Shown: positions 2,118 to 48,400, counted from the first letter of the stretch. The stretch is DNA of 64,000 nt from an uncultured virus (IMG/VR IMGVR_UViG_3300046500_000156) (IMGVR_UViG_3300046500_000156); one strand, 5' to 3'. The notes: generated by a model from the sequence alone, not told the origin. Numbers and translations: made by a program.

Positions 2118-3311
2118 TCATGAAAGGGCGTACTCCGTGTCGAGGACGTCCTGCCACATGGTGTCGTCGATCTTGTTGACTTCCACCTCCCGACCGAGGA
2201 TCTGGCGCACCAGGAACTGCAGCAGCCGGCTCTTGGCGATCAGTGCCAGTTGCAGGTTGTACTGGACACGCATGTCATTCCCGTAATTGGGCAGGCAGCG
2301 GAAGCAGTCATGCACTGTGAGGAGCTGGAAGGGCTTCTTCGGCAGCGAGTTGAGCAGCTCCCGGATCTCGACTTCGTCGACCAGATCGATGTTGTCGCCG
2401 TACAGGTGATCAAGGATGCGTGCTGACAGGTAGCCCGATTCCTTGAAGCGTGCCCACAGCGTCATCACCATCTCGTCGTCGGCGTCTTCTCCGATGGAGT
2501 CGTCACCTTCGAGCGCCGACCAGACGCGGCTGATGGTCGCAGGGTCGTAGTTGCAGCGGCGGTTCATCTCCCGCACGATCATGCCGTCGATGGAATGAAT
2601 CGTATTTGCGCCGAGGCTTCTGCCCTCCTCCTGCGGGGCGTTGACCTTGCGGAAGGTGTCGATGGGTTCGTTCAGGAAGTGCACACGCTCGACTTCCTCG
2701 CCCATCACCTTCACGTGCACGTGGAAGTTGTCCGGCAGCACCCAGCTGTTGATCAGCGCATTCGGATCCCACATCGAGAGGAACGCTTCGTTGAGCTCCC
2801 AGGCGTAGGGCGCTACCTCCTTCATGGTGTCGTAGAACATGGTGAGCAGACCACCTTCGCCGAAGACTTTCTTCGGGATGGCCTGCGACCCGTACAACGC
2901 GGTCATCACGGCTTCTTTAATGTCGGTGCGCTTGATGCGGCCCTCTTCACCGATCTTGTCCAGCATGGTCTGATAGATACCGGTGTAGGCATCTTCCCGT
3001 GAGCCAGAGGGAAGGACGTTACACAGTAACGCGGCCTTGCGGTCACCAGTCAGTGCGGCGAGGATCTGCAGACCCGATGACGTGGCATCGAGCGAGATGG
3101 GGTAGCCAGTGGCTTCGCCTCGCTGGCTCGCTTCATAGGCCTGCACCCCTGCGAAGTAGAGTGCCGGCGTCTCGGCCTGCGTAAGCAGCTCGTGCAGACG
3201 GTCCTTGTTGTCGTCGAACCAGGAAAGACGCTCATCCCACGTGCTCTTGTCCAGTCCGAAGTTCGAAGCGATGTCGATCTTGAGGTACTGCAGGCCAGTG
3301 AACTTTTGCAT
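2118..3311 (-). CDS. N4-like RNA polymerase II subunit 2 (gp16-like)
   Basis: T7-like motifs LDATSSGLQI, RTDIKEAVMTALYGS, NTIHSIDG, VHDCF; N-terminal FTGLQYLKIDIASNFGLDK. Confidence 0.95.
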   Translation of the reverse strand: MQKFTGLQYLKIDIASNFGLDKSTWDERLSWFDDNKDRLHELLTQAETPALYFAGVQAYEASQRGEATGYPISLDATSSGLQILAALTGDRKAALLCNVLPSGSREDAYTGIYQTMLDKIGEEGRIKRTDIKEAVMTALYGSQAIPKKVFGEGGLLTMFYDTMKEVAPYAWELNEAFLSMWDPNALINSWVLPDNFHVHVKVMGEEVERVHFLNEPIDTFRKVNAPQEEGRSLGANTIHSIDGMIVREMNRRCNYDPATISRVWSALEGDDSIGEDADDEMVMTLWARFKESGYLSARILDHLYGDNIDLVDEVEIRELLNSLPKKPFQLLTVHDCFRCLPNYGNDMRVQYNLQLALIAKSRLLQFLVRQILGREVEVNKIDDTMWQDVLDTEYALS

Positions 3312-3336
3312 GATGTGCTCTCTTTTTGAACGAACC

Positions 3337-3375
3337 AAAAGAAAAAGCCACCGGAGGTGAACTCACGGTGGCTTT
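3337..3375 (-). terminator. intrinsic terminator between the plasmid cassette and RNAP2
   Basis: AAAGCCACCG/CGGTGGCTTT stem with T-tract on the minus strand. Confidence 0.75.
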
Positions 3376-3465
3376 GAATTTGTAGTTGGTGTTGTCTTTT
3401 CTCTGGCTCCTCGAACGGCAGGCAGAGAATAGTCCGACCAGATGAATCTGTTTGTTAACCAGGCC

Positions 3466-3732
3466 TCAGATCTGTTTCATCTGGTCGATCATGTCTTCCA
3501 GCTGTTGGATCTTCTGCTGTATGGCGTCGAACCGTTGATTCACGCTCGCGTCGATCTGCGCACGGTCGCCTGCGTAATGCAGTACGAGTCCCATGCTGCC
3601 TTCGAGCGAGTTGACCTGGTTACCGAGACGCACGAAGTTCTCGCGCATCTCGGACTGCATCTTGTCGAACTTGGCCATGAGCTGATCCAGCCTGACCAGG
3701 ACGATGTTCTTCGGCTCTTCTGGCTCACTCAT
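3466..3732 (-). CDS. coiled-coil hypothetical protein (88 aa)
   Basis: Heptad-rich; ATGA overlap with upstream gene. Confidence 0.65.
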   Translation of the reverse strand: MSEPEEPKNIVLVRLDQLMAKFDKMQSEMRENFVRLGNQVNSLEGSMGLVLHYAGDRAQIDASVNQRFDAIQQKIQQLEDMIDQMKQI

Positions 3733-3962
3733 AGTTGGCCTCGATCTCGTTTGAACTTGTCCAGCAGCGCCTGCAGGCTTTGCCGGTTGAATGCGTCGAT
3801 GTCGCTCACGTCCACAGGCGGCAGCGGCTTGGCTGCATCGATCTTCTGCAGGCGCTTCAGGATCGGTGCGATCCGGCGCTGGTAGTCACGGTGCAGCTCG
3901 TTCAAGATCCAGCGCAGCTCCTGCTCTTCGGTTTCAAATCGTGGGATGTTTTCGATGGCCAT
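3729..3962 (-). CDS. hypothetical protein (77 aa)
   Basis: Coupled to the downstream gene; follows repL-like gene. Confidence 0.6.
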   Translation of the reverse strand: MAIENIPRFETEEQELRWILNELHRDYQRRIAPILKRLQKIDAAKPLPPVDVSDIDAFNRQSLQALLDKFKRDRGQL

Positions 3963-4029
3963 GTTCAGACTCTACTTGAGGTTCACTTCGTAGTCTGAGA
4001 CAGAACCAAGGGGATGTATACGCCGATGA

Positions 4030-4578
4030 TTAGGCGTGAAAGTCTAGCTGCGACTGTTCGGGCGGATCGTCGTTACCGAGCTCGGACCCAGCCACGATGA
4101 CATCTTCCTCCGGATGAATGATCGGCACCTGTTCGAGCTGTGGGCTCGGATCGGCCTGCGTGAACTTGTCCTGCTCGTCGAGATTGACGATGACTTCGGC
4201 CTGGAACGAGGCCCACTTCTCCCCGGCTCGTGTTGTCCAGAAGACAGACGAGTTGACGCGGTAGACGTTGGTCGTGCCAACCTTGAGCACCTCCACCCAC
4301 TTCTTCTCACGCAGCAGTGCGATGGCACGCTGCAAGGTGGGCCGGGTGAGATCGGCCAGCTTCATCAGGCTGTCCTGGCTCATGACCAGTGCATTGTGGC
4401 GGTCCATGGCCTTGACCAGTACCCACAGCAAGTAGTGCGCTTTCGAGGACTCCCGGCTCAGATCATTGAGCTTGTCGATTTGCTTACGATTGACTTGCAC
4501 GAAGTCGCGGTTGATCGCCCCATGCTTCAGGCGAGCCACCTCCCGGCGCAACTTTTCGTTCTCTTCAGCTGGTGTCAT
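4030..4578 (-). CDS. repL: plasmid replication/maintenance protein, RepL-like HTH
   Basis: DFVQV...LLWVLVKAMDRHNALVMSQDSL...TRPTLQRAIALLREKKW..V.KVGTTNVYRVNSSVFW, typical of the RepL family of small-plasmid Rep proteins; start chosen at MTPAEE. Confidence 0.75.
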   Translation of the reverse strand: MTPAEENEKLRREVARLKHGAINRDFVQVNRKQIDKLNDLSRESSKAHYLLWVLVKAMDRHNALVMSQDSLMKLADLTRPTLQRAIALLREKKWVEVLKVGTTNVYRVNSSVFWTTRAGEKWASFQAEVIVNLDEQDKFTQADPSPQLEQVPIIHPEEDVIVAGSELGNDDPPEQSQLDFHA

Positions 4579-4599
4579 GTTGGTTTTTCTCGTGATGTC

Positions 4600-4870
4600 G
4601 CTTGCATCATAGGCGAGAATGTGATGCACGTAAACTCATGGATGAGCCTGCGATACCGTGAAAATGAGGCAGATCCGCCTCATCTAGGATGAGGCATAAG
4701 GAAATCGCTGGGAGGCAATGCCGACAAGGGATTCCGGCGTAAACACAGGGCCTTCCCTTCTATGATCTAGGTTTACACAAGGAATTGAGCATCCCCGTGA
4801 TGGACAACTCACCTGCCCACAGCATGAAGCTGTGGACAGCCGGCAAGCCGGTACGTGAGTTCCCCACACT
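4600..4870. promoter_or_regulatory. putative plasmid replication origin
   Basis: Inverted repeats TGCATCA/TGATGCA (4603-4628), CTCAT/ATGAG (4635-4646), three alternating ATGAGGC copies (4664-4695), branched hairpin with DnaA-box-like sequences (4797-4869); directly upstream of repL. Confidence 0.55.
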
Positions 4871-4934
4871 TGAGCCTGACGCGGCCTGCGGCCTTGCCCA
4901 AATGAGATAGAGAGTCAAATTCAAAACCGGGCGG

Positions 4935-5282
4935 TCAATAGCCCTCCTTCTCGGCCTTTGCAATGATCTTGTCGATCTCCCGCTCGACCACTTCAGCGAC
5001 GAAGGTATAGGCGCTGTTGATGGCGCCCCAATTCTTCATCTCTTTGATCTTGGTTTGCACCCGCAGCGGCATCTCATAGTTCGTCTTTTTCCACTCATCC
5101 TGTCCTGGGCGGGTCCAGGCATACCTCCTTCCTTGCTTGGCTCCTTGGAAGGCGGCTTCCTTGGTTCCTTCCTTGGAGGGAGGCAAGGAGTCTTCCTTTC
5201 CTGGATCCAAGGTGGTGACAGCCGCACCCGCATTGCCTTTGCGGGCAATGACCGTGTTGTCGAGAGACGGGACTTTACTCAT
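4935..5282 (-). CDS. putative centromere-binding protein (type Ib ParA partner, ribbon-helix-helix-like)
   Basis: Overlaps the parA stop; low-complexity N-terminal tail with Arg (ARKGNA); C-terminal strand-helix-helix pattern WKKTNYEMPLRVQTKIKEM...SAYTFVAEVVEREI. Confidence 0.65.
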   Translation of the reverse strand: MSKVPSLDNTVIARKGNAGAAVTTLDPGKEDSLPPSKEGTKEAAFQGAKQGRRYAWTRPGQDEWKKTNYEMPLRVQTKIKEMKNWGAINSAYTFVAEVVEREIDKIIAKAEKEGY

Positions 5283-5913
5283 ACTGCACCCCCTTTCGAG
5301 GTTCGAACTTGGCCACAACGAACTTTGCAAGCTGATCGATCAAGATAGCACCCGTGCCTTTAGTGATTTCATTGATCGTCAGGCCGGCAGACATCGATTG
5401 CCAGTAGCCATTGAGCTTCGGAATAGTCTGCGGAATAACGGGACCGAACTCAGCTAACTTCTTGACGGCAGAGTTGGCGACAGCCAGCCCGTTCGTCTCA
5501 TTGAGCAGGTACATGAACTTCTTGCCTTCCTCTTCGCACAGATCCACCGTGGAGAGGGTGGCCTTGATATCGCCCTTGGAGTGCTTGGTGGGAATGATCA
5601 CCAGATCGGCCAGCTTGATGGCGGCCCGATTGATCGGGGCGGTTTGCGGTGGGGTATCGATCAGGAACCAGGACACCCCTCCTTTCACGAGTTGAGCGTG
5701 GCGCTCTCGAAGCTCGGCGGCATCCTTAATGTTGGTGAAAGCCGGCGTTTCAGCGTTGCGGTCATTCCACCAGTCAGCCAGTGTGCCTTGGGGATCCAGG
5801 TCGGTGATGACGACTGGTCCTTGGCCCATGGCCTCCAATGCCACGGCCAGGTGAGCCGTGTGCATGGTTTTGCCTACTCCGCCCTTGAGACAGGAGAAGA
5901 CGATGGTCTTCAT
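5275..5913 (-). CDS. parA: ParA/ParF-type partition ATPase (type Ib, no N-terminal HTH)
   Basis: Deviant Walker A KGGVGKT, DLDPQG, IDTPP, ADLVIIP; 212 aa; RBS GAGGAG. Confidence 0.93.
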   Translation of the reverse strand: MKTIVFSCLKGGVGKTMHTAHLAVALEAMGQGPVVITDLDPQGTLADWWNDRNAETPAFTNIKDAAELRERHAQLVKGGVSWFLIDTPPQTAPINRAAIKLADLVIIPTKHSKGDIKATLSTVDLCEEEGKKFMYLLNETNGLAVANSAVKKLAEFGPVIPQTIPKLNGYWQSMSAGLTINEITKGTGAILIDQLAKFVVAKFEPRKGVQYE

Positions 5914-5944
5914 GTGAACTCCTCGCAGGTTGGTTCAGTGCGGG

Positions 5945-5972
5945 ACTGTATACCAATCTACGAGGGAAGCAA
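5945..5972 (-). promoter_or_regulatory. sigma70-like promoter for the par-rep cassette
   Basis: TTGCTT-16 nt-TACAGT upstream of the parA RBS, flanked by CCTT/CTTG repeats. Confidence 0.45.
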
Positions 5973-6047
5973 GACTCCTTCAAGGGAAGGAGGAAGGGAA
6001 CCAAGGAGGGAGCTTTCCTTGGTTCCAAGAAATCAAGATTTCTTGAT
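5960..6047. repeat. centromere/operator-like repeat array upstream of parA
   Basis: AAGG/GAGG 4-bp periodic run, then TCCTTGGT-TCCAAGAA-ATCAAGAT-TTCTTGAT in 8-bp register (6016-6047). Confidence 0.65.
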
Positions 6048-6322
6048 TAGTAATGGATGGCTAGACGATCCAGCGCTTCCCGCATGGCGTTGGCAGCCAT
6101 GGCCGCCTGGCCCAGATTGATGGCCAGATCCGTGTTGCGGTTGCGCACCTGCATGGTGCCATCGTCCATCAGCTCCAGTGTCGCACCCTCGAAGAGGGTA
6201 CAGCCGATCTGAGCTTCTGCTTTGTCTTCCTGGCTCATGCGTTGATCGATGCCGGTACGAATCATTTTGCTGGTCTCATTCAGGGCGCTGTAGCGCCAGG
6301 TGGTTTGGGGTTGGTAAGTCAT
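6047..6322 (-). CDS. hypothetical protein (91 aa)
   Basis: ATGA overlap with upstream gene; starts MTYQPQ. Confidence 0.6.
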   Translation of the reverse strand: MTYQPQTTWRYSALNETSKMIRTGIDQRMSQEDKAEAQIGCTLFEGATLELMDDGTMQVRNRNTDLAINLGQAAMAANAMREALDRLAIHY

Positions 6323-6504
6323 TTCTTGATTTCTTGAATTCTTGATTTTTCGATGGCTTCGTCGATCTCTTTTACCAGCTTCTTCAGCGGGATCGTCACA
6401 GCCGGCTCCTCGTGTTGCCAGTAGCGATTGTGCAGGGCAGTGATCTCCCCGAGCAGCTCCTTGCGGATGCGCAGCAGGAGCTCCTTGGATACCAGGACGC
6501 TCAC
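6319..6504 (-). CDS. hypothetical protein (61 aa)
   Basis: GTGA overlap with RNAP1 stop. Confidence 0.6.
   Translation of the reverse strand: MSVLVSKELLLRIRKELLGEITALHNRYWQHEEPAVTIPLKKLVKEIDEAIEKSRIQEIKK
6323..6354. repeat. 8-bp box array
   Basis: TTCTTGAT-TTCTTGAA-TTCTTGAT-TTTTCGAT. Confidence 0.75.
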
Positions 6505-7310
6505 TGCACCACCTCCCCTTCAGCCATCTCCACAACCGCCTTGCACCAGGCCGTGGACTGGTAGTTCACGTGGTAGCCCTGGGCATAGGTTCTACCCCTT
6601 TTGTCATACCTGTGGGTGAGGTGGAACTCGTTGCCTTCCCGAACAAGTAGATCGATGACAGCATGAGAAGTCTTGTCGTACTTTTCGAAAGCACGCTTGC
6701 GGCGTTCGAAGTCGGATCGGGTTTCCCCTTCCTTGGGTTTGTCGAGGTTTCTCCATTCATTGTTGATGAGCTTGGCCGTGTTGAAGTTGATCTTCAGGCG
6801 CATCTTGTTCAGACGGTTGAGGTGGTCCAGTGCCACATCGTCGTCGTGATGATTGTCCCGAAGGATGACGCTGCTGTTGTTCAGCAGATAGCCAGACTGC
6901 TTGTTGTGTCTGATCGGCTTCGGCTCCACCACCATGGGCAGTGGATACTGGAAGCGATCGATCTCCTCCTGCGTCTTGGCATCGATCTCGAAGATCACGA
7001 TGAACTGACGCAGGGGAATGTTGTAGGTGCACAGATCGGCTTCAGCGCAGCGAACCAGCAAGTCTGCTACTTCCTGAGCCGTCTTACAGTGGTGTCTCAG
7101 GCAGCCGACGAGCGTCTGCACGTCGCAACGCTTGTGCAGCGCCATCTGAACCAGGAGATCGATACCGAAGGCTTCGGGGATCTCCTTCTCCTTCAGGTGG
7201 GCGATGATCTCGGGCTCGGCCATGAACTCAGCCCGCATGCGGGGCATGAGCTGGTTCTTCGAAAAGAGGGCTTCGAGCTCTTGCTGGTGGGCGATTCTGG
7301 CTTCAGTCAC
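6501..7310 (-). CDS. N4-like RNA polymerase II subunit 1 (gp15-like)
   Basis: FQYPLPMVVEP, SGYL, YDKRGRTYAQGYHVNYQ motifs; 269 aa. Confidence 0.95.
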   Translation of the reverse strand: MTEARIAHQQELEALFSKNQLMPRMRAEFMAEPEIIAHLKEKEIPEAFGIDLLVQMALHKRCDVQTLVGCLRHHCKTAQEVADLLVRCAEADLCTYNIPLRQFIVIFEIDAKTQEEIDRFQYPLPMVVEPKPIRHNKQSGYLLNNSSVILRDNHHDDDVALDHLNRLNKMRLKINFNTAKLINNEWRNLDKPKEGETRSDFERRKRAFEKYDKTSHAVIDLLVREGNEFHLTHRYDKRGRTYAQGYHVNYQSTAWCKAVVEMAEGEVVQ

Positions 7311-7692
7311 GGTAACGCTCCTCGATGATGCGGATTGCCTGGAAACATTGGGCCGGCGTAAACATGCCGATATGACATTCGTAGACCGGTATGCCCATTT
7401 GCTCGGCCAGCCATTTGTAGGCTTGCCGTCGATTCATCTTTGCCTTCGCCATCCAGAGCGGATCGAAGGCTTCGTGGACTCGCATCTTTAGCTGACGCAA
7501 TGTGGCGTTGGCCAGAATGCCCAGTGGCCTGGTGCCATCGCCATACCCCTTGTTGGGTTCGTGACAGCCGACATAAGCCTCACATGGCAGACAGCGCCAG
7601 AAGTGCTTCTGCCACAGATGCTGCAAGCGAGGATAGATCTCCTTGCCGGTGACCGGCTCAGCAGGTTGGTTGCAGTAGTGGCAGGTGGTCAT
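7303..7692 (-). CDS. DUF3268-like zinc-finger protein
   Basis: CHYC...CLPCEAYVGCH...PLGILAN..LR...HEAFDPLW...AYKWLA...CHIGMF. Confidence 0.85.
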   Translation of the reverse strand: MTTCHYCNQPAEPVTGKEIYPRLQHLWQKHFWRCLPCEAYVGCHEPNKGYGDGTRPLGILANATLRQLKMRVHEAFDPLWMAKAKMNRRQAYKWLAEQMGIPVYECHIGMFTPAQCFQAIRIIEERYRD

Positions 7693-7697
7693 GGTTT

Positions 7698-7737
7698 TCC
7701 TTGGTTCCTTGAATTCTTGAAATCAAGATTTCTTGAT
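7698..7737. repeat. 8-bp box array
   Basis: TCCTTGGT-TCCTTGAA-TTCTTGAA-ATCAAGAT(inverted)-TTCTTGAT in exact register. Confidence 0.8.
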
Positions 7738-7959
7738 TTATGCAGCAATGGCGCCGAGCTCCTCGAACGTGACCGTGCGCTTGACCAGCCGGACAGTGGG
7801 GTGCACACCCGGTCGCTTGTTGCGGGCTTCGAGCCACTTCTCAGCAGCCTGGCGATCCTTGAAGCTGTGGATCATGTGGTTGCCCTGGCTCACGAGGATG
7901 AGCTCTTCCTGGCTCAGCAGCTGGTCTCCGAGGGATTTCTGGATCTTGGTGGACAGCAT
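7738..7959 (-). CDS. hypothetical protein (73 aa)
   Basis: ATG after AAGGA; operon context. Confidence 0.6.
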   Translation of the reverse strand: MLSTKIQKSLGDQLLSQEELILVSQGNHMIHSFKDRQAAEKWLEARNKRPGVHPTVRLVKRTVTFEELGAIAA

Positions 7960-7965
7960 GTTCTT

Positions 7966-7989
7966 TCCTTGAATTCTTGATTTCTTAAT
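7966..7989. repeat. 8-bp box array
   Basis: TCCTTGAA-TTCTTGAT-TTCTTAAT. Confidence 0.7.
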
Positions 7990-39479: not shown

Positions 39480-42400
39480 ATGCCGTCTGCGCAAGAGATG
39501 TTCGACCAGTACCTGGGCTCAGCAGGTACGGGTACGGTTCCGGGTTCAGGGCCGGTTACCGGGGCGGTGGATAACCCGTTCCTTTCTGACTCACCAGCGC
39601 CAACCAAACAGGATGCAGTAGCCGTAACAGCCGATACGAAGAAAGCCAGTGTGGCCCAAACGGCTGATGCAAAGAAGGCACAAGTCGCAGCACAGACCGG
39701 TGTGCCTTCCTTGGATCAGCTGTACAGCGCCACACTGGCACGCAACTCGGGTGTGGGTAATCAGACCTTGCCTAGCCAGGAGCTGGCAGACCTGAATAGC
39801 CTCACGCCCTACGACCTGGCCAAGAAGTATGGCTTCAGTCGTGCACAGGACATGATCAACGGTCAGCTTCAGGCACAGGGCGCCACGCAGACCGACATCA
39901 ACACGCAACGCTCCTTGCCACAGGCGGCAGGTGACTTCGCTACGGGTGTAGGCCTGGGTGTCGCCAACTCGGTGGGTGGTGTGGGTGCATTGGCTGCGGG
40001 CCTGGTCAGCAAGCGTGCAGGTACGGCAGTGGCATCCGGCATCAAGGCACTCAACGATGTGGTGCAGCAGAACCTGCAATCCGATGGGATGAACGCCCAT
40101 CGGCAAGTCAATGCTGCCCGGAACGAACTGGGGTATCGGGACAGTGAAGCGGAATACGATCGAACCAAGGGAACGGACGGTGAGTTTATGGCCGGTCTGC
40201 GCCGTATCGGCAAAGATGCGGCCACCGCTGTCGGAAACGCTGTCATGGATCCTACAGTCGCCTCCGATGGTGTGGCACAAGGTATCGGTTCGCTCCTCAC
40301 CGCTGGGCCGATTGGTCGTGGTATCTCGCTTGGCGCCAACGCTCTAGTCGGTGGCGTGGCTCGCCGTGCACTGGTCGAAGGCGCCATTGCAGCGGATGCA
40401 GGTGCAGGCGGTGCTTCGGCGCTTCTGGGCCGGGCCGCTACTTCTCCCCTTGGCTCCAAGGTACTGGACTTCGCCAAGCATGAAGGCGCCACGATGGCCG
40501 GCATCGGTGCCACGGAAGCTGGTGGTGCTTACCAGCAGAACGCAGCGGACGTGATGGACATGAAGTTCGAGGATCTGCAGAAGACCTCGCCCATGTTCAA
40601 TCAGCTCGTCGAAGATGGCATGAAGAAGATGGGACCGAATCCGACGCCGGAACAGGTCACTGCCCTTCAGGAAGAGGCTCGCCGCACGGTAGCCAATCGC
40701 TCCGGCCTCCTCGCCGCGGCCATTCAGGCGCCGATTGCCACCGCTACCGGTGCACTGGTTTCCAAGTTCGAATCGGCGCCGCTGAAGATTCCGACGCTGC
40801 GTCAGCTCGGCCAGAACATTCTCAAGGAAGGCACCGAAGAGACGATCCAGTCGGGTACGGGTCAGGCTGCACAGAACATCGCCACCAAGCAAACGGCTAA
40901 CGACAAGCAGGATCTGCTGCAGGGGGTCGGTGAGCAGGCGGGTCTGGGTGGCCTATACGGCATGGCCTCGGCAGGCGTGGTGTCTGGTCCTGGCTCCATC
41001 CTGAGCTCGGGCACCCGTGCGGCACTGGGCATCAGCAACAAGGCGGTGGAACTGGCCGGCAAGCGGGGCGACCGGATCATGGCCGAGAATGAGGCGAAGT
41101 CGCCGGTCTCGGATCAGTCCATTGCCACAGCAGCCGCTGAAGCGGTACAGAACGCACCGGCAGCGGCACAGGCCGCAACGGATGCGATTGACAAGTCCGA
41201 TCTCACCCCGAGCCAGAAGGAAGAAGCGCACTCCTACGTCGAACAGGCCAAGGGGGTGGTGCACTTCGATCCGGCAGAAGTTCAGGGCATGCCGGAGGTG
41301 ATCCAGCGTGCTGCTGAAGGACAGACTTCCCGTCTGCAGTTCTTCCAGAACCTCGCCAACGAAGCCAAGAACCCGAAGAACTCGGCACAGGAGCAAGCAC
41401 TGGCACTGGCTACGCTTCAGGCCTCCATCGACGGTGTGTTGGGTGAGAAGGGCATCAACATCGCCAGCGCTGAATTCAATGCGCTGCCCGATACGCACGA
41501 TGCCAAGCTCTTCACGGGTGATGTCGCAGAACTGTGGACCAAGTTCCAGCAGTCACCGGCAGGCAAGACGGCCAGCAACGAAGAGCGTGCGGCGAAGACG
41601 GCTGAGCGCGTAGCGAAAGAGAACCTCACGCCGGAACACTTCGACACACCGGAAGGTCAGCAGGCAGTCCAGGCCAACATTGCTGCGGCACAGTTGAGCC
41701 CGCAACACTCGAACCGGGCGAACAATGAGCTGATCCTGAACATGGCGGCAGCGGGCAAGATCACGCTCGACAACCGTCAGAGTGCAGCGCTGCGCATTGC
41801 CAACGCCATTCTCGGTGAACAGGAAAAGCACCAGGCTCAGTTGAAGCAAGTCGGTGCAAAGTCGGCCTCAGACCTGGTCAGCCATCAGGTGACGGTCAAC
41901 GAAGGTTCGCCAGAAGGTGCGGAGTCGGCCAAGGAGCACATGGACGCCATTCGTTCGGCGTATGGTCGAGGTGACTTCAAAGGTGCCAAGGCTGCTTTGC
42001 TCGGATTTCAGAACTTTGTCCAGAGCCAGCAGAACAAGATCCGTGCGGTGAACACCCAGATTGCGACGCACGGCGGGAATGCGAATCCGAACAACGCGCT
42101 CCACTACGATGCTGCTTTGCAGGACAAGTCGGGGTTCCGCAAGAGCGACAAGCCCTTTGGCGTGTCGGTTCAAGGCAAGCGTGCGGCCAACTCCATCGGC
42201 TTCGTTCAACAGGTAGCGGCTGAAACTCAAGCGCTCACCGGGATTCACAACGCACTGGCTACGGCTTTTCCGGAGCTGGGTGTTAAGCATGTGGAGTCAG
42301 TTTCTCTGGATCCGTTGCTCTCCGATGCGCATCCGTCGAAGGTGGCAAAGGAGTTCGCTGACGGTACTCGGGGCAAGAAGCAGGACAAGCCCTCTGCAAC

Positions 42401-45400
42401 CGAGCCGGTTAAGGAAAAGGAATCTGCCGCACAGTCTAGTAAACCGAGCGCCCCGGATGAAGCCCCGAAACAACCGGTTACGTCTGCGCAACAGTCGGCA
42501 CCGAAGGATGCAGTAAAAGAGACGACCAAGCCAGCAGAACCGGTAAACGATACGTCGAGCCAGAAGGAAGAACCGGCTCAGCCGCATGACGTGGCGCAGG
42601 AACGTGAAGCCCTGATCAACCGCAAGATCGCCGGTCCCCTCACGGTGCAGGAAGAAGCACGCCTGCGTGAGATCGATCAGGAGATTCATGCGGGCGTGAA
42701 CAAGGGTCTCGAGCGAGATCTGTCGACTGTCGGTGAGTCCGATGGCAAGGGCGTGTCTGCGCTCTACCCGAATCTCATCGTGCCGGTCGGTGGCAACTTC
42801 TTTACCCGTGCCTTCCGTCTGCCGAGTGAAGCTCGCTCGAAGCTGGCCGGTGTGGAGAAGCCCCTTGAACAGGTGCGGGATGCGCTGAACACGGAACCGA
42901 ACTTCCGTGCGGCATCGGGCAAGAGCACGCGTGGTTTCGATGACAAGACTCGGGCGGCGTACCGCTATCACCTGAGCTTTGCGCCGAAGATGGTGGCCGC
43001 ATTCAATGAGCATCTGCAGGCCATGCTCAAGAAGAGCACCAATGCACAGGACATCGTCTCGGGTGCCAAGGATCCGAACCGCTATCGCAATGGCAAGCTG
43101 CTCAACATCGCCGAGGAAACGGAAGACGGTCTGCGTCTGAACCAGTCGCTGGCTGAAGCTGCAGCACTGGCCGGTCTGCAATGGGTGCTCGGTGCGCAGA
43201 ACAATGCCTCGCACTATGACACGATGGACATCGCCAGCATCTTCGGTGTACGTCCGGACCAGGTGACCGAAGAGATGGAGAACCATCTCAAGTCGGGGTC
43301 GGCCCGCATCGAAGGCTATTCCTCCCTGGCTCAGAAGATCCAGACCTACTGGGGACTGGCCTCCGATCCGAACATGGATGTGGCCTACACCCACGGCATT
43401 CTGGATGCCATGGCTGCCGAAATTCTCGACACCATGACCGATCCGGAAACGGGTCTGAAGCTCAAAGACGGCACACCCTTCGTGCGTGAAGTCACCAAGA
43501 CGGTGGACGTGCGCACAGGTGAAATCGTCGACACGCGGGAAGTCGCCAAGGATGGTGAGATCCCGAAGGCTTTCACGGGCAAGAACTACAAGTCCATTCC
43601 CGTGCTGCAGACGCCGGCACTGGAAAAGTTCGGCGCCTTGCAGAAGCTGCCCGATGCGATCGAGCGGGTGATTGCCACGAAGCCTGAGCTGAGCCACTAC
43701 CTCGATGGCGAGCTGCCGACGCCGCCCAAGGAGCAGATGCGCAATCCCGGCGTGAAGCTCACGGATGAGCAAAAGCAGATGATCGCCAACGAGACCGACA
43801 CCGTCCACAAGCTGGATATGGATTCGGTGGCGCTCTTCCGTGCGATTGATCGTGACTGGATGGCGAAGATTTTCGGCCCCGGTGACATCGATCCGAAGAA
43901 GCTCAACAAGAACGATCTGAACTCCCAGGAAGGTCAGAAGCTCTCGATCACGGGTGCTTTCGATGCGTTCCTCGATCTCACGGCGCAAGTCGAAGATCAT
44001 GCTGCAGCCAACGGCAAGGAGCCAGGGGAGGTGGAGATCCGCTACGGCTACAACGTCTCGAAGGTGGGACGCTTGCAGATGCTCGGCGCCTTCAATCCGC
44101 AGGCTTCCAAGTTGATGCGCCATGCGGTGCTGCCCACCGAATCGACGCTCGAGCTGACGAGCACCAAGGGGCAGCAAGCCTGGTGGCTGGGTGTGGCACA
44201 GGGGCTGGGCGTGAAGGTGCACAACATGACGCCGGAGATGGCCCGCACCGAGGCCGAGAAAGCACTGGCCGGCAAGTACGCCGTGCCGCTTTCGATCATG
44301 AAATCGTTCCTTCAGAGCGGCAAGCTGGAGCCAGAAGACCTGGAAAACCTGCATGCTTCCCTTGGCTCAGGGGCATCGTTTGCTGCGCTCTACGCTGTGC
44401 TGCAACAGGCCAAGTACGAGCTGGCGCAACAGAACGGCGATGATCTGTCGAAGTTCAAGACCAAGCTCTATCTGGAAGCCGATGGCAAGACCAATGGTCC
44501 GATCATGGCCATGGCCATGTTTGGCCGCGGCAAGATGACGGCCAATGAAGTCATCAACCTGTCCCGTGGCGGTGTGCTCTTTGGCGACAGCCAGACGAAC
44601 ACGGCAGGTCTGCAGTTCATCAAGGATCCGGTCGATCTGTACAAGGCCACGGCCAACAACCTGAACCAGACCCTGAGCGAATTGCTGCAGGAAGGTTCGG
44701 GCATGGATGCCGATGTGCGTGAGCAGCTTGCACACCTGCTGAAAGTGATGAATGTGCTGCTGGGCGATAACGTCATCAAGTTCGATGGCAGCACGGGTGT
44801 GGAGATGGGCCGGGACATCGCCAAGAATCCGCTGACCGTGACCATGTATTCGTCAGGTCCGAACGGCATCGCCAACAAGATTGCCGGCATGCTCACGGAT
44901 GCCGTCTATGCGCAGATGTCCAAGGCGCTGCAAAACAACTGGAAGATCGGCGAGCTCTTCGGTCCTGAGCAGAAGGAAAAGAACGAGATTCTCAACACCT
45001 CGCTCAAGGCCTTGATGGACCGGGTCGTGGACAAGGGTGAGACTGACGAACTGATCCTCGCTGAGAATAAAGAGCGGGACACGAAGAACCAGAAGATGAC
45101 GGAGTTCACTTTTGGTCCGATGGATCGTCAGACGATCCAGAAGAACATTCGTATGCTCTTCGTCGATCCGATGCGCGCTTCCATCGGTGCGGTGGTGGGG
45201 CAGGACGTGTTCGATGCCATGCAGATGGTGCAGCAGGCCACGCAAGTTCAATCGATCTTTCAGGAATACGCCTACAACCAGGCCGTGGACGCAGCCCTGA
45301 AAGCACGACAGGATGACCCGAAGGCAACCGATTACCGCAAGGGCGACTACCTCTCGCAGAAGCAACTGGACGAGATCCAGAAGTCAGTCCGCAATCTCTC

Positions 45401-48400
45401 GCCGTATATCGAGGCACCGGGCCAGACCTTCTACATGTCGGGCAAGCAGCGGGTCACGCCCCAGGTGGAGTCGTTTGGCTCGGCACTGTCCGACCGCTAC
45501 CGTGCACCGGCTGTGCTCAATGGTCCGGGCAATATCGGGGTGGCCGGCCCCGCCTCGATCAATATCGGCATGGGTGATGGCCGCATGATCCAGTCGTTCT
45601 CAACGATGCCGGGTGTGGTGGGCAATCACCTGAACATCTTCGACGGGATTCACTTCGCCCTGTCCGACATCGAGCAGGGGTCGAAGCAGGCCAACGAGGC
45701 GGCATGGACGGCGATGACGGGCAATCCGTTGAAGGCCGTGAGCCGTGCGTACCAGACGTTCCTCGCCCATATTCCGGCGACCGAAGTCACCTTCGGCTCG
45801 GATCTGCACAAGGCACTGGTCGCAGCACTCTATGGCCCGTTCGCGGCCACCGACAAGGGACTGAAGCGCAATCCCCCGGCGAAAGTCATCGCAGCCCTGC
45901 AGACGCTGGGTGAGGATCTTTCCTCTGGCTCCGATGCGGTGGACGCTCGTCACCGTGCATTGATGCGGGTCAACGTCACCATCGACCAGATGGCCGGCGC
46001 CAGCTCGCCGCACCGTATCGGCGGTAAGGAGAGCATCGATGCAGCGGCGTCTCCTGACGAGATCGCAGCCCGCATCACCGAGCTCACCGCTGAAGAGCAG
46101 GCGAAGATCGATGCGCAAAACGAGAAGGCACCGCGAACCAGTGAAGCCCTGAACACGGGTCTGGCCGCAGCTGGCGAGCCGCACCGCACGGGTGTGAAGA
46201 TCTGGCGCTTCGATGGGGTGAGGAACCTGATCGGCAATGTGCTCGAGCGTCTGCCGCGTGAACAGGCGGTGATGCTCGAGCACATTGCACGCTCGATGCA
46301 GGCAGATGGCTACACGCTGATCCACGGCAACCGGGAGCAGCTCACCGCCTACAACGAGTCGCTGGGTGCGATGAAGGTCGATGCAGCGAACCTGGCCAAT
46401 CCGAACGTGCAGGGTTTCACGATGCCGGGCCGCCAGCAGGTCTGGATCGTCAATCCGTCTTCGGAGACGCTCACGCACGAGCTGATCCACGCTGCCACGA
46501 TGAAGGCGGTGCTCGCCTACTACAACGGCGAGAACCTGGGCAAGAATCACACGCACGTGGAAGAAGCGATCCAGAACCTGGAAACGCTGATGCAGCAGTT
46601 CCTGGGTCTGAATGACGACATCGACTCGCTGCCCCGTGAGATGCAGGTGGCGTATCACAACGCCTTCACCGCCATCAACACGGCGCTGAACAATCCCGAT
46701 CTCGATCCGGCCACCCGTTCGGCTGCGGCACTGAACGAGTACATGGCCTGGGGTCTGGCCAACCAGCAGCTCGCAGCGCTCCAGAAGAAGGTCGATGCGC
46801 ATCCGCTGGTGAAGATGGCCCAGTCGGTGATCGACTGGCTGCGTCAGATCGTCTTCGGCAAGCAGCTGGTCAAGACGCCGGGTGAGGACATGTTCAGTCA
46901 CCTGCAGTTCAACACGCAGGTGGTCCTCACGGCTCAGCCGACCATGGGTCAGATGATGCGCGACACCGTCCTATACCAGAACGCCCAGTACGGCAATGAT
47001 CAGCGTCTGGCTGAGCTCGGTGACATGTTCGACCGCACCATCACCAACTGGGTGGCCGATGCCAAGGGCAACGTGCCGGAGATGCTGCGCCGTCAGTACG
47101 AGGCCAAGCATCTGGCACAGCAGCAAGGCACACGCCTGTCCAACGCATTCGCCACGGTCTTCCCGATGACGTTGCAGGAGAAGACCACGTTCCATCAGAT
47201 CGTGGCCGGCCTCGTTACTGAAGCGCACTTCGATCCGAATGTGCTGGCTCGCATGCACCAGCTCTGGTCGCTCGTGAACAAGCATCTCGATGCCACGATG
47301 ATGGAGGATCCCAACGAGCTCGATCCGAACCAGCGTCGCCATGACGCTCAGGAAAAGGTCGATGCGATCCGCGGTGACATCTTCGAAGAGTACGACTCGA
47401 AGGGCCGTTCGACGCTGCTGCCCACGTTCATGGCGCTGGCGATGACCAACGACCACTTCCGCAGCGTGCTGGCGAAGATCGCCACCGAGAAGCAGGCTCG
47501 CTCGGATGCGGAGTCCCGTGTGGATCAGGCGCTGGAGAACTTCGCCACCGACACCCTCGATGCACTGGGCCGGCGTCTGTCGGGTGAGCGCAAGAGCCCG
47601 GATGTGCTCGCAGCGATGGATGCGCTCTCGGCACGCTTCGTGGATCTGGCACAGGAGCGCCAGACGGCCATGGACCTGTACCTGAAGAATAGCGGCGGGG
47701 TCATCGACTCGGCCAATGACTATATGGTGCAGGGCATGGGCGATCTCGCTCGCTTCCTGGTTCAGAAGGCGGACAAGATCGACACGCAGACCAGCAACAA
47801 GCTGGTGCGTCTGGGTACGAATTCGACACGCCTGTTTGCGGCGATCATCAACGAGGAGCAGGCCGGTATCGTGGCAGAGGGGATGCTCACCTATGCCAAC
47901 AAGATCCAGGCGTTCAAGCCTTTCACCGATCTGATCCACGACATGATCGGTCGTGTCGCCTCGAATGCCGAGGTCTACGACATGATCAAGGCCGTGCGCT
48001 CGATGGTCCAGAAGATGCGTCAGCAGTTCCGCGAGGAAGTGCCCAAGATCATCGCCAAGCAGTTCAGCAGGAATCTCACGGAAGCTGAGTGGGATCTGCT
48101 GCATAAGGGCATGGGCAAGACCGATCTCGCTTCCCTGGCTCAAGGGATGTCGCAGAACGAAGTGTTGTCGATGCTCAAGGATCGCAAGGCACGCGAAACC
48201 AAGATCAAGGAACTGGAAGACCAGATCCAGTCACTGGACAAGCCCTACTTCGACTTCCGCAAGAAGAAGATGCAGGAGCTCGCCAAGTACATGGTGACGG
48301 GTCAGACTTCGTCGGATCTGTTGCGCAATGCCCATGCGATTGCCCGCATGGCCGGCACGCCCAACTGGCTGGTCAGCAAGGCCAGCAAGGATCTGGTCAA

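Follow-up and report, generated by a model that had tools for sequence, protein, structure and literature searches.

N4-like phages are regarded as strictly lytic and hence are favoured for phage therapy and biocontrol. We analysed a stretch of 64,000 nucleotides from an uncultured virus (IMG/VR IMGVR_UViG_3300046500_000156; this whole stretch is referred to below as the window), which comprises most of an N4-like (Schitoviridae) genome. The subject of this report is a cassette that consists of parA, a parB-like partner gene, a non-coding spacer and a replication gene, rep, and that lies between the genes for the small subunit (RNAP1) and the large subunit (RNAP2) of the phage RNA polymerase II (RNAPII). 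A first-pass annotation had read this region as a plasmid-type replicon with a partition operon inside an N4-like genome, which was borne out by the gene content.

Partition genes that maintain a prophage are known from the Cluster A mycobacteriophages, in which parABS replaces the integration cassette and the prophage is kept extrachromosomally. These phages have an immunity repressor, and we know of no separate plasmid initiator with iterons in them; their ParA matches that of the window at 31-34%. Type Ib partition is exemplified by ParF-ParG-parH of TP228 and by par2 of pB171. In common with these systems, the ParA of the window is small and lacks an N-terminal DNA-binding domain, the N-terminal tail of the partner is flexible, repeats (here a candidate operator and centromere) precede parA and a second cluster follows downstream; unlike in them, the partner matches no family, and the second repeat cluster is located within the partner's coding sequence. 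The small RepL/HTH_36 plasmids of Proteobacteria (among them Burkholderia sp. PAMC 28687 plasmid 5 and the Salmonella and Shigella plasmids of 2.5-2.6 kb), for which we know of no mapped origin, share with the window a Rep of 37-54% identity and the order of a hairpin, nnCTCA..TGAGnn palindromes and rep. They carry mob genes and no par operon, whereas in the window the replicon is joined to parAB in a genome of ~77 kb.

Phage-plasmids are defined as tailed phage genomes with plasmid features (PMC7969092, PMC12977533). P1, N15, SSU5 and the AB group resemble the window in combining a phage genome with a plasmid replicon and a partition system, and the ParA proteins of SSU5 and of the P1-like D6 match that of the window at 28%. 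The window differs from them in belonging to another virus family, with its own full replication set and a virion RNA polymerase cascade, and in that no C1/CI-type immunity was found in it. According to the main text of PMC12977533, the ten curated phage-plasmid types are siphoviruses or myoviruses, the AB type being a siphovirus of 101-122 kb, and the term 'N4-like' is absent from the main text of both papers. Integrated N4-like proviruses have been described: the main text of PMC10654107 reports 40 integrated N4-like proviral regions and 54 genomes with an integrase, a transposase or a diversity-generating retroelement. These are, like the window, N4-like genomes, and they have lysogeny genes, but their lysogeny proceeds via integration, and the main text of that paper contains no instance of 'plasmid', 'partition' or 'ParB'. 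A literature search returned published integrated N4-like proviruses and no report of an N4-like phage-plasmid (the survey supplements may bear on this point).

Partition operon, putative initiator gene and candidate origin

The window encodes a giant virion RNA polymerase (vRNAP; open reading frame (ORF) 39480-50360, 3626 amino acids), the first 1000 residues of which match ORFs of 3550-3768 amino acids in five of five N4-like elements searched. It also encodes a DNA polymerase, a primase, a Dda-like helicase, an exonuclease and a Sak4-like annealase, together with portal, major head protein, terminase and tail spikes. The features by which Schitoviridae are recognised, namely the giant vRNAP, the two-subunit RNAPII and N4-type head, portal and replication genes, were all found. 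About 13 kb of the genome lies beyond the window, and the longest contig with this rep measures 76,984 bp. Phage structural and lysis genes stand with plasmid replication and partition genes on one replicon, which is the gene combination of a phage-plasmid.

The parA gene (5275-5913, minus strand, as is every gene of the RNAP1-RNAP2 interval) encodes a small ATPase of 212 amino acids, with the deviant Walker A motif KGGVGKT at residues 10-16 and without an N-terminal DNA-binding domain. In Pfam, AAA_31 (46 bits, cut-off 27) and CbiA (36 bits) scored above their cut-offs, and the protein matched phrog_164 (1.2e-32); NCBIfam NF041546 gave 113 bits, below its cut-off of 180, which places ParA outside that equivalog. 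ParA is 41% identical to a Xanthomonas plasmid ParA and 61-72% identical to the parA products of five IMG/VR loci. On these matches, it is a predicted partition ATPase of the type Ib kind.

The parB-like gene (4935-5282, minus strand) overlaps the end of parA by 8 nt and encodes a partner of 115 amino acids. Homologues directly follow parA in six of six related loci, and the N-terminal peptide MSK.PSLD..V..KG is kept in all seven sequences, succeeded by a low-complexity linker and a conserved C-terminal domain; no family was assigned in Pfam, PHROGs or NCBIfam. The AlphaFold2 (AF2) monomer model shows residues 1-55 at a predicted local distance difference test score (pLDDT) of <60 and two helices, 61-84 and 91-112 (pLDDT >90), with no strand. 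The first-pass annotation had described the partner as ribbon-helix-helix (RHH)-like, and the search of 4935-5282 that it called for returned the two helices, no match in the PDB and RHH rows below the bar: 6 of the 10 rows of an Atlas structure search were RHH-type families, at TM scores of 0.38-0.49, all of them under the bar. The RHH fold may serve as a lead from the model.

Two clusters of repeats accompany the operon. The 133-bp spacer between parA and the next gene upstream, orf91, is rich in repeats and contains an inverted CCAAGG/CCTTGG repeat with 8-nt arms (5999-6024) plus a TTCTTGG copy, which together (5999-6031, minus strand, 94-118 nt upstream of parA) form a candidate operator/centromere. 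Three direct CCAAGGA heptamers inside parB (5142-5176, minus strand) form a candidate second centromere/operator cluster. In three related IMG/VR genomes, L002, L005 and L009, 3-4 copies of the heptamer stand at the same place inside parB, and an inverted heptamer pair is found at -94 to -129 of parA. A further locus, L001, bears the variant CCAAGAA inside parB and, reversed, upstream of parA.

The rep gene (4030-4578, or from GTG 4629, minus strand) encodes a putative winged-helix initiator of the RepL/HTH_36 class; ATG 4578 is favoured as its start because the predicted promoter at 4606-4634 lies downstream of GTG 4629. A tblastn search against plasmids matched 242 plasmid records, the best at 54% identity on a 6,086-bp Burkholderia plasmid. 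Rep is 46% identical to the product of a Collimonas plasmid gene named RepL, and two very small plasmids, one of 2,569 bp from Salmonella and one of 2,605 bp from Shigella, have a homologue (37-40%) and mobV as their only genes. Forty Rep relatives from a large protein collection are mostly located on contigs of 1-30 kb; their hosts are Burkholderia, Caballeronia, Paraburkholderia and Achromobacter, their source annotations read RepL or plasmid replication protein, and those used for family membership have 50-77% identity.

Among the aligned family members, PF05732 RepL was detected in 24 of 39 and PF13730 HTH_36 in 32 of 39 (E<=0.001). The window Rep itself gave no RepL match in Pfam at E<=0.1, so the earlier label 'repL-like' holds for the family, through those 24 relatives, and not for the protein itself. 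PHROGs returned a DnaD-like loader (1.5e-4) and a replication initiation protein (1.7e-3). The AF2 model consists of an N-terminal helix, a winged-helix core at 48-125 (pLDDT 85-92) and a disordered tail. The profile and structure search that had been proposed for 4030-4578 thus yielded a winged helix and, via relatives, RepL/HTH_36, with no Pfam cut-off reached. A sequence search of Rep against the PDB gave nothing useful (best E 0.62, TubR), and the related-loci search with Rep found no viral contig. ORF44 (L042) of the temperate, P2-like Burkholderia phage FLC5 is a rep homologue (33% identical), and this replicon type therefore rides in another phage family too. The FLC5 homologue has upstream palindromes of its own, TTCTCA/TGAGAA. 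The Rep family also has a nearly invariant tail, LG.DDPPEQ.QLDFH, after the disordered linker (window 4030-4080). Its QLDF resembles beta-clamp-binding pentapeptides, and a protein of the host replisome may dock on this tail.

The non-coding spacer of 356 bp between rep and parB (4579-4934, minus strand) is a candidate origin and rep control region. Candidate Rep-binding sites at 4661-4695 (minus strand) comprise a 19-bp perfect palindrome (4677-4695) and a third half-site (4661-4670), 83-117 nt before the rep ATG and just upstream of a sigma70-like promoter, TTTACG-17-TATGAT (4606-4634, minus strand), which agreed with the consensus at 9/12 positions. Three of the six GCCTCAT/ATGAGGC half-sites of the 64-kb window fall within these 35 bp. 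The plasmids of Burkholderia, Collimonas, Shigella and Salmonella, as well as phage FLC5, bear arrays of nnCTCA..TGAGnn at 85-170 nt before rep, the outer bases of the palindromes varying from replicon to replicon; repeated candidate initiator sites beside rep are a geometry common to the window and five other replicons. A perfect hairpin with a 7-bp stem (4813-4839, minus strand) is located ~255 nt upstream of rep, and in three related plasmids, too, a perfect hairpin precedes rep, at a distance of about 230-350 nt. The spacer thus shows the signature of its plasmid family, which suggests that rep arrived with its own cis sites. The RNA fold of the spacer has a z of -2.81, with 0 of 100 shuffles as stable, and Rfam gave 0 matches at E<=1 in 3200-6700.

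The promoter consensus scan made 2 matches against 1.3 expected, the one at 4634-4606 before rep and one on the other strand. A sigma70-like promoter had been placed before parA at 5945-5972 (TTGCTT..TACAGT, minus strand); the scan did not call it, and the parA upstream region around it is partly conserved in relatives. A terminator-like hairpin with a T run is present at 3344-3375 (minus strand), 33 nt before the RNAP2 start. The terminator scan called 3360-3348 and direct reading gave the full stem, 3375-3366 with 3353-3344, in agreement with the terminator annotated at 3337-3375. Counterparts were called in L009 (10904-10925) and L005 (12212-12236); the same scan called none in L002 and none on the sense strand of three out of three genomes without par (L010, L021 and L013). 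The suggestion that the terminator insulates RNAP2 fits this distribution, the hairpin being present in 3/4 par-bearing versus 0/3 non-par genomes, a small sample.

The module in related genomes and co-occurring strains

Five IMG/VR contigs were obtained by a search with ParA and seven more by a search with RNAP1. The three nearest relatives are L009 (78.5 kb, RNAP2 81% identical to that of the window), L005 (74.7 kb, 73%) and L002 (77.2 kb, 65%). All three have parA-parB between RNAP1 and RNAP2, directly followed by the gene for an HTH_36 protein of ~200 amino acids and then by iterons, five in L009, four in L005 and six in L002 (15-30 nt, with a sequence that differs by genome). A comparison of the genes between the RNAP subunits, of the kind suggested in the first-pass annotation, thus revealed a counterpart of the module at the same place in each of the three. 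BLAST detected no similarity between the relatives' HTH_36 protein and the window Rep; hhalign aligned them over the winged-helix domain (94.8%, E 5.3e-8), identifying a remote homologue.

Three contigs of non-N4 phages, L001 (54 kb), L003 (36 kb) and L004 (40 kb), carry parA at 62-69% and parB at 43-48% identity. The initiator after parAB is Rep_3 in L001 (PF01051, 4.6e-34) and HTH_36 in L003 and L004, and the three contigs are candidate phage-plasmids of other types with one common partition family. The trio of parA, partner gene and HTH gene also occurs on a Polaromonas plasmid of 104 kb, where three iterons and two perfect DnaA boxes come after it. A single partition family combined with three initiator types that can replace one another is modular in the way typical of plasmid maintenance regions.

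The RNAP1-RNAP2 gap is only 56-214 nt, with the two genes adjacent, in L010, L011, L012, L014 and L015. In GenBank, 170 matching records cover the flanks only and none covers the insert; in Achromobacter phage Axy11, 2,265 nt correspond to 4,937 nt of the query. Unrelated DNA occupies the gap in L013 (2.4 kb of other ORFs) and in L022, L026, L028 and L029 (1-2.3 kb). The gap looks like a general insertion hot spot.

Rhizosphere metagenomes are the source of the DNA; parts of it are present in 18 runs, which belong to 18 studies with the date 2023 and may stem from one campaign. In Logan contigs of four runs besides the likely source, 3958-6307 is covered with 0-1 mismatches, and the RNAP2 flank diverges by 2-4% in the same four runs. 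A record from run X5 (3934-6307) spans both cassette edges in one contig, extending 30 letters to the left of a branch point at 3963 and 67 to the left of one at 4001, and records from run X3 (3442-4457, 4439-6066 and 6037-7274) span both junctions. Because contigs of other runs bridge both junctions, the cassette is not a chimera, and the concern raised in the first-pass annotation that no reads might cross its junctions was not upheld.

Loose contig ends at 3963, 4001, 6013, 6328, 6354 and 6511 mark co-occurring strains that depart at the edges, and one at 5915 runs into sequence that resembles the region before parA in L002 and L009. Since co-occurring strains depart exactly at its edges, the cassette, at about 3964-6012, is a discrete, exchangeable unit. 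Two small ORFs at 3466-3962 had been counted as part of the cassette; other strains retain both while ~3964-6012 differs, and these genes (orf88 and orf77) are, like orf91 on the other side, backbone genes outside the cassette. Thus parA, the spacer, rep and the small ORFs of the originally listed block were found as listed; the RHH fold of the partner is a lead only, and the membership of 3466-3962 in the cassette was not sustained. Contig depth in X2 and X4 is lower in the cassette than in the flanks; such depths cannot rank the parts and were not used. The virus record closest to the window, G001, is a fragment of 21.6 kb that lacks the cassette region.

The relatives' HTH_36 protein led to pRBH2-3 (NZ_CP110465.1), a circular replicon of 75,126 bp from an A. 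baumannii clinical isolate, which is on file as a plasmid. Its products include an N4-gp56-type capsid protein, a 3646-amino-acid protein, RNAP2 (34-35% identical to that of the window), DNA polymerase and primase, and in addition a trio of ParA, a 102-amino-acid protein and a helix-turn-helix (HTH) protein, as well as a serine recombinase. Of 72,556 plasmid records, this one alone gave a match to RNAP2, and it is 98.6-99.6% identical to Acinetobacter phage vB_IME_Ab2712 (OK149216.1) over 80-95% of two stretches tested. Like the window, pRBH2-3 has, in a complete N4-like genome, parA, a small partner, an HTH_36 winged-helix gene and then repeated sites. Unlike the window, it has a ParA of 34% identity, an HTH protein whose 37% match is to that of L002, and a module elsewhere in the genome rather than between the RNAP genes; its serine recombinase and a DeoR-type regulator are further differences, as neither was found in the window. 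No paper on pRBH2-3 was found in the literature, and none relevant on pA29BJ2. With its plasmid state taken as filed, pRBH2-3 is the database appearance expected of a phage-plasmid. The circular replicon in a bacterial isolate for which the first-pass annotation suggested looking was thus seen only in this distant N4-like element, the window's own source being metagenomic.

Flanking genes and variation around the cassette

Downstream of the cassette lies RNAP2, the large subunit of RNAPII (N4 gp16-like; 2118-3311, or start 3338, minus strand), which matches phrog_2051 (1.3e-164) and PF00940 (4.2e-19); alignment with relatives gives ATG 3311 as its start. Between it and the cassette are two backbone genes, both on the minus strand. 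orf88 (3466-3732) encodes a coiled-coil-like small protein with only weak coiled-coil matches in Pfam and with homologues of 31-39% identity in L002, L005 and L009. orf77 (3729-3962), at the left edge of the cassette, encodes a small protein that has a 75% identical homologue in L009 and no family in Pfam, PHROGs or NCBIfam. The right edge is formed by the small backbone gene orf91 (6047-6322, minus strand; homologues of 44-49% identity in L002 and L009), and orf61 (6319-6504, minus strand) is a small ORF that overlaps the RNAP1 stop; domain searches assigned no family to either. RNAP1, the small subunit of RNAPII (N4 gp15-like; 6501-7310, minus strand), is the upstream flank and matches phrog_2166 (7.8e-101).

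Co-occurring strains also vary in these flanks. Some of them skip orf88, as contigs of X2, X3 and X5 have joints from 3459/3468 to 3729. In X3 and X4, a DUF3268 zinc-finger gene (7303-7692) is swapped for 13-23 other letters (region 7289-7696). Both the skip and the replacement represent gene-content microdiversity between co-occurring strains. In L014, the RNAP2 match (4624-5610) is split by ~1 kb between residues 344 and 346, which may be an intron, an intein or a homing-endonuclease insertion.

Two sequence motifs recur around the interval. Of the 16 copies of CCAAGGAA in the window, 12 are on the minus strand, and at least one, at 7697-7704, is located just before an ORF start at 7692; the motif may be an extended ribosome-binding or promoter-linked element. 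The palindrome CAAGAAATC..GATTTCTTG is found at 6026-6045 and again at 7720-7739, and the motif appears at 6323-6353 as repeats with a period of 8 bp, TTCTTGAT. It is also borne by another strain, on a loose end at 7986, and may be an early-region phage promoter or operator element.

An integrated N4-like prophage was also observed. Contig2 (727 kb; L033-L037, G005:C12) of Mesorhizobium yinganensis CN2-181 holds a full N4-like prophage that extends from before 440 kb to ~515.5 kb, with its gene order permuted relative to the virion ends. The two ends of the prophage are located between RNAP2 and the rII/helicase side instead of at the virion ends. At its right border, a tyrosine integrase (PF00589 1.8e-18, 514405-515496) adjoins a host fabI-like gene, as does a Trans_reg_C protein.

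Proposed plasmid maintenance and its alternatives

Because a complete replication-and-partition unit lies in an N4-like genome, persistence as a plasmid is suggested. We consider it rather probable that the circularised phage genome is maintained as a low-copy plasmid, in a prophage or a long-lived carrier state, by a replicon that depends on the host and by active partition. Virion DNA would circularise through its terminal repeats; the window runs unbroken from the early genes into the terminase gene, and the assembly thus reads through the junction and leaves the topology undecided. Rep, as a winged-helix initiator, would bind 4661-4695, control the promoter of its own gene and bring in the host replisome, and the unit would copy the phage genome with host machinery. 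The N-terminal peptide of the 115-amino-acid adaptor would stimulate ParA and its C-terminal domain would bind the heptamers upstream of parA and inside parB, and ParA and its partner would segregate the copies at division. The terminator would keep host RNAP transcripts of the cassette out of RNAP2. The host probably belongs to the Burkholderiales.

A number of observations weigh against plasmid maintenance. As the first-pass annotation had stated for integrase and CI, no integrase, recombinase or CI-type repressor was found among the ORFs of the window, and no repressor, resolvase or antirepressor was recognised either in its ~70 ORFs, beyond which ~13 kb of the genome extends. An N4-type infection delivers vRNAP with the DNA, and lysis would have to be averted all the same. 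The source is a metagenome, which comes without host, topology or copy number. ParA identity does not track the backbone, the ParA of L002 being 72% identical versus 60% for its RNAP1 and that of the non-N4 locus L001 being 69% identical to the window. The RNAP2 tree, which is poorly resolved, gives two changes of par, with one change in 46% of bootstrap trees, and is compatible with one gain or with two. vB_IME_Ab2712 is recorded as a Schitoviridae phage from hospital sewage and marked UNVERIFIED, and pRBH2-3 could reflect a carrier culture.

Further adverse points concern the sites and the two less well assigned proteins. DnaA boxes are not enriched in the spacer (97 found versus 106.5 expected), nor does it contain a strong AT-rich unwinding stretch, the lowest GC in 40-nt windows being 0.40. 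The heptamer CCAAGGAA occurs 16 times across the whole window against 1.77 expected, with 0 of 100 shuffles reaching 16, and the heptamers inside parB may merely encode a repetitive peptide. For the partner, no PDB structure was matched by Foldseek at E<=0.001, and the sequence search reached a best E of 0.57. The window Rep reached no Pfam cut-off (HTH_36 at 14.7 bits, cut-off 25), and Foldseek matched it to generic winged-helix regulators only (E 3e-3 at best); these two results keep a regulator role for Rep in play. We rated a plain transcription regulator lower, its homologues being the sole candidate replication gene of two-gene plasmids.

A bolder form of plasmid maintenance, which we regard as possible though not likely, is an N4-like lineage with repressor-free plasmid lysogeny that is silent by default and uses the cassette as a swappable host-adaptation unit. 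Early genes need injected vRNAP, middle genes the early RNAPII and late genes a middle protein, so that a genome escaping or outlasting the first round would stay silent without further control. Its upkeep would depend on the sigma70-driven par-rep cassette alone, insulated from RNAP2 by the terminator, and strains would swap whole par-rep-ori alleles from local plasmids, which would set host range and incompatibility. The idea of the first-pass annotation, silence in daughter cells for want of vRNAP, is attractive, but would leave the step right after infection unexplained.

The module might instead serve the lytic cycle, its RepL-like initiator firing a second, host-dependent origin early and ParA and its partner positioning or separating genomes, with no plasmid state. 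The lytic replicon repL of P1 is a precedent for an early-infection origin. The cassette stands in the early/middle transcription unit on the same strand, so that read-through of it would be expected during infection; the window yielded no lysogeny regulator, and a rep homologue is also present in the P2-like FLC5. However, the phage already has its own DNA polymerase, primase and helicase, and most N4-like genomes examined do without the module, as the adjacent RNAP genes and the 170 GenBank records without insert indicate. Iteron arrays with a partition operon are, moreover, a hallmark of low-copy plasmids, and pRBH2-3 is filed as the plasmid of an isolate. We think a purely lytic role improbable.

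The cassette could also be a selfish passenger, a small plasmid replicon with par that recombined into a permissive RNAP gap and has no phage role. Such a passenger would agree with the other inserts accepted by the gap in L013, L022, L026, L028 and L029, with the exact differences between co-occurring strains at ~3963/4001 and 6013, with a ParA similarity out of step with the backbone and with a rep allele that differs from those of the relatives. Yet a par-rep-ori module of the same order occupies the same place in 4/4 genomes of the nearest group, across 60-80% protein identity, with reading frames intact and cis sites kept in all of them, and a packaging-limited phage would be expected to shed 2 kb of useless DNA. 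This, too, appears improbable.

Competition is a further conceivable function, with par/rep incompatibility acting against resident plasmids or phage-plasmids, or with superinfection exclusion of kin. Several alternative cassette alleles co-occur in the same soils, as seen from the loose contig ends, and iteron and half-site sequences vary among relatives, as expected from diversifying incompatibility groups. Diversifying incompatibility, however, presupposes plasmid maintenance and would add to it rather than replace it, and as an explanation in its own right we judge competition very unlikely. Lastly, that an assembler joined a plasmid fragment to phage DNA can practically be dismissed: the origin is metagenomic and contigs do break at the edges (X2 at 3958 and 6042, X4 at 3959-6042), but the X5 contig and the first two X3 contigs cross both edges, and three independent IMG/VR genomes have a homologous module at the same place.

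Plasmid maintenance of an N4-like genome is testable, since a fragment of 2 kb lends itself to cloning and a public collection already contains an isolate that bears a related element. If it is true, the screening of N4-like phages would change, as a search for integrase and CI would miss plasmid carriers. Phage-plasmids would gain a podovirus family equipped with replication and transcription machinery of its own, and these phages would provide a natural test of whether an injected-polymerase cascade can replace a repressor.

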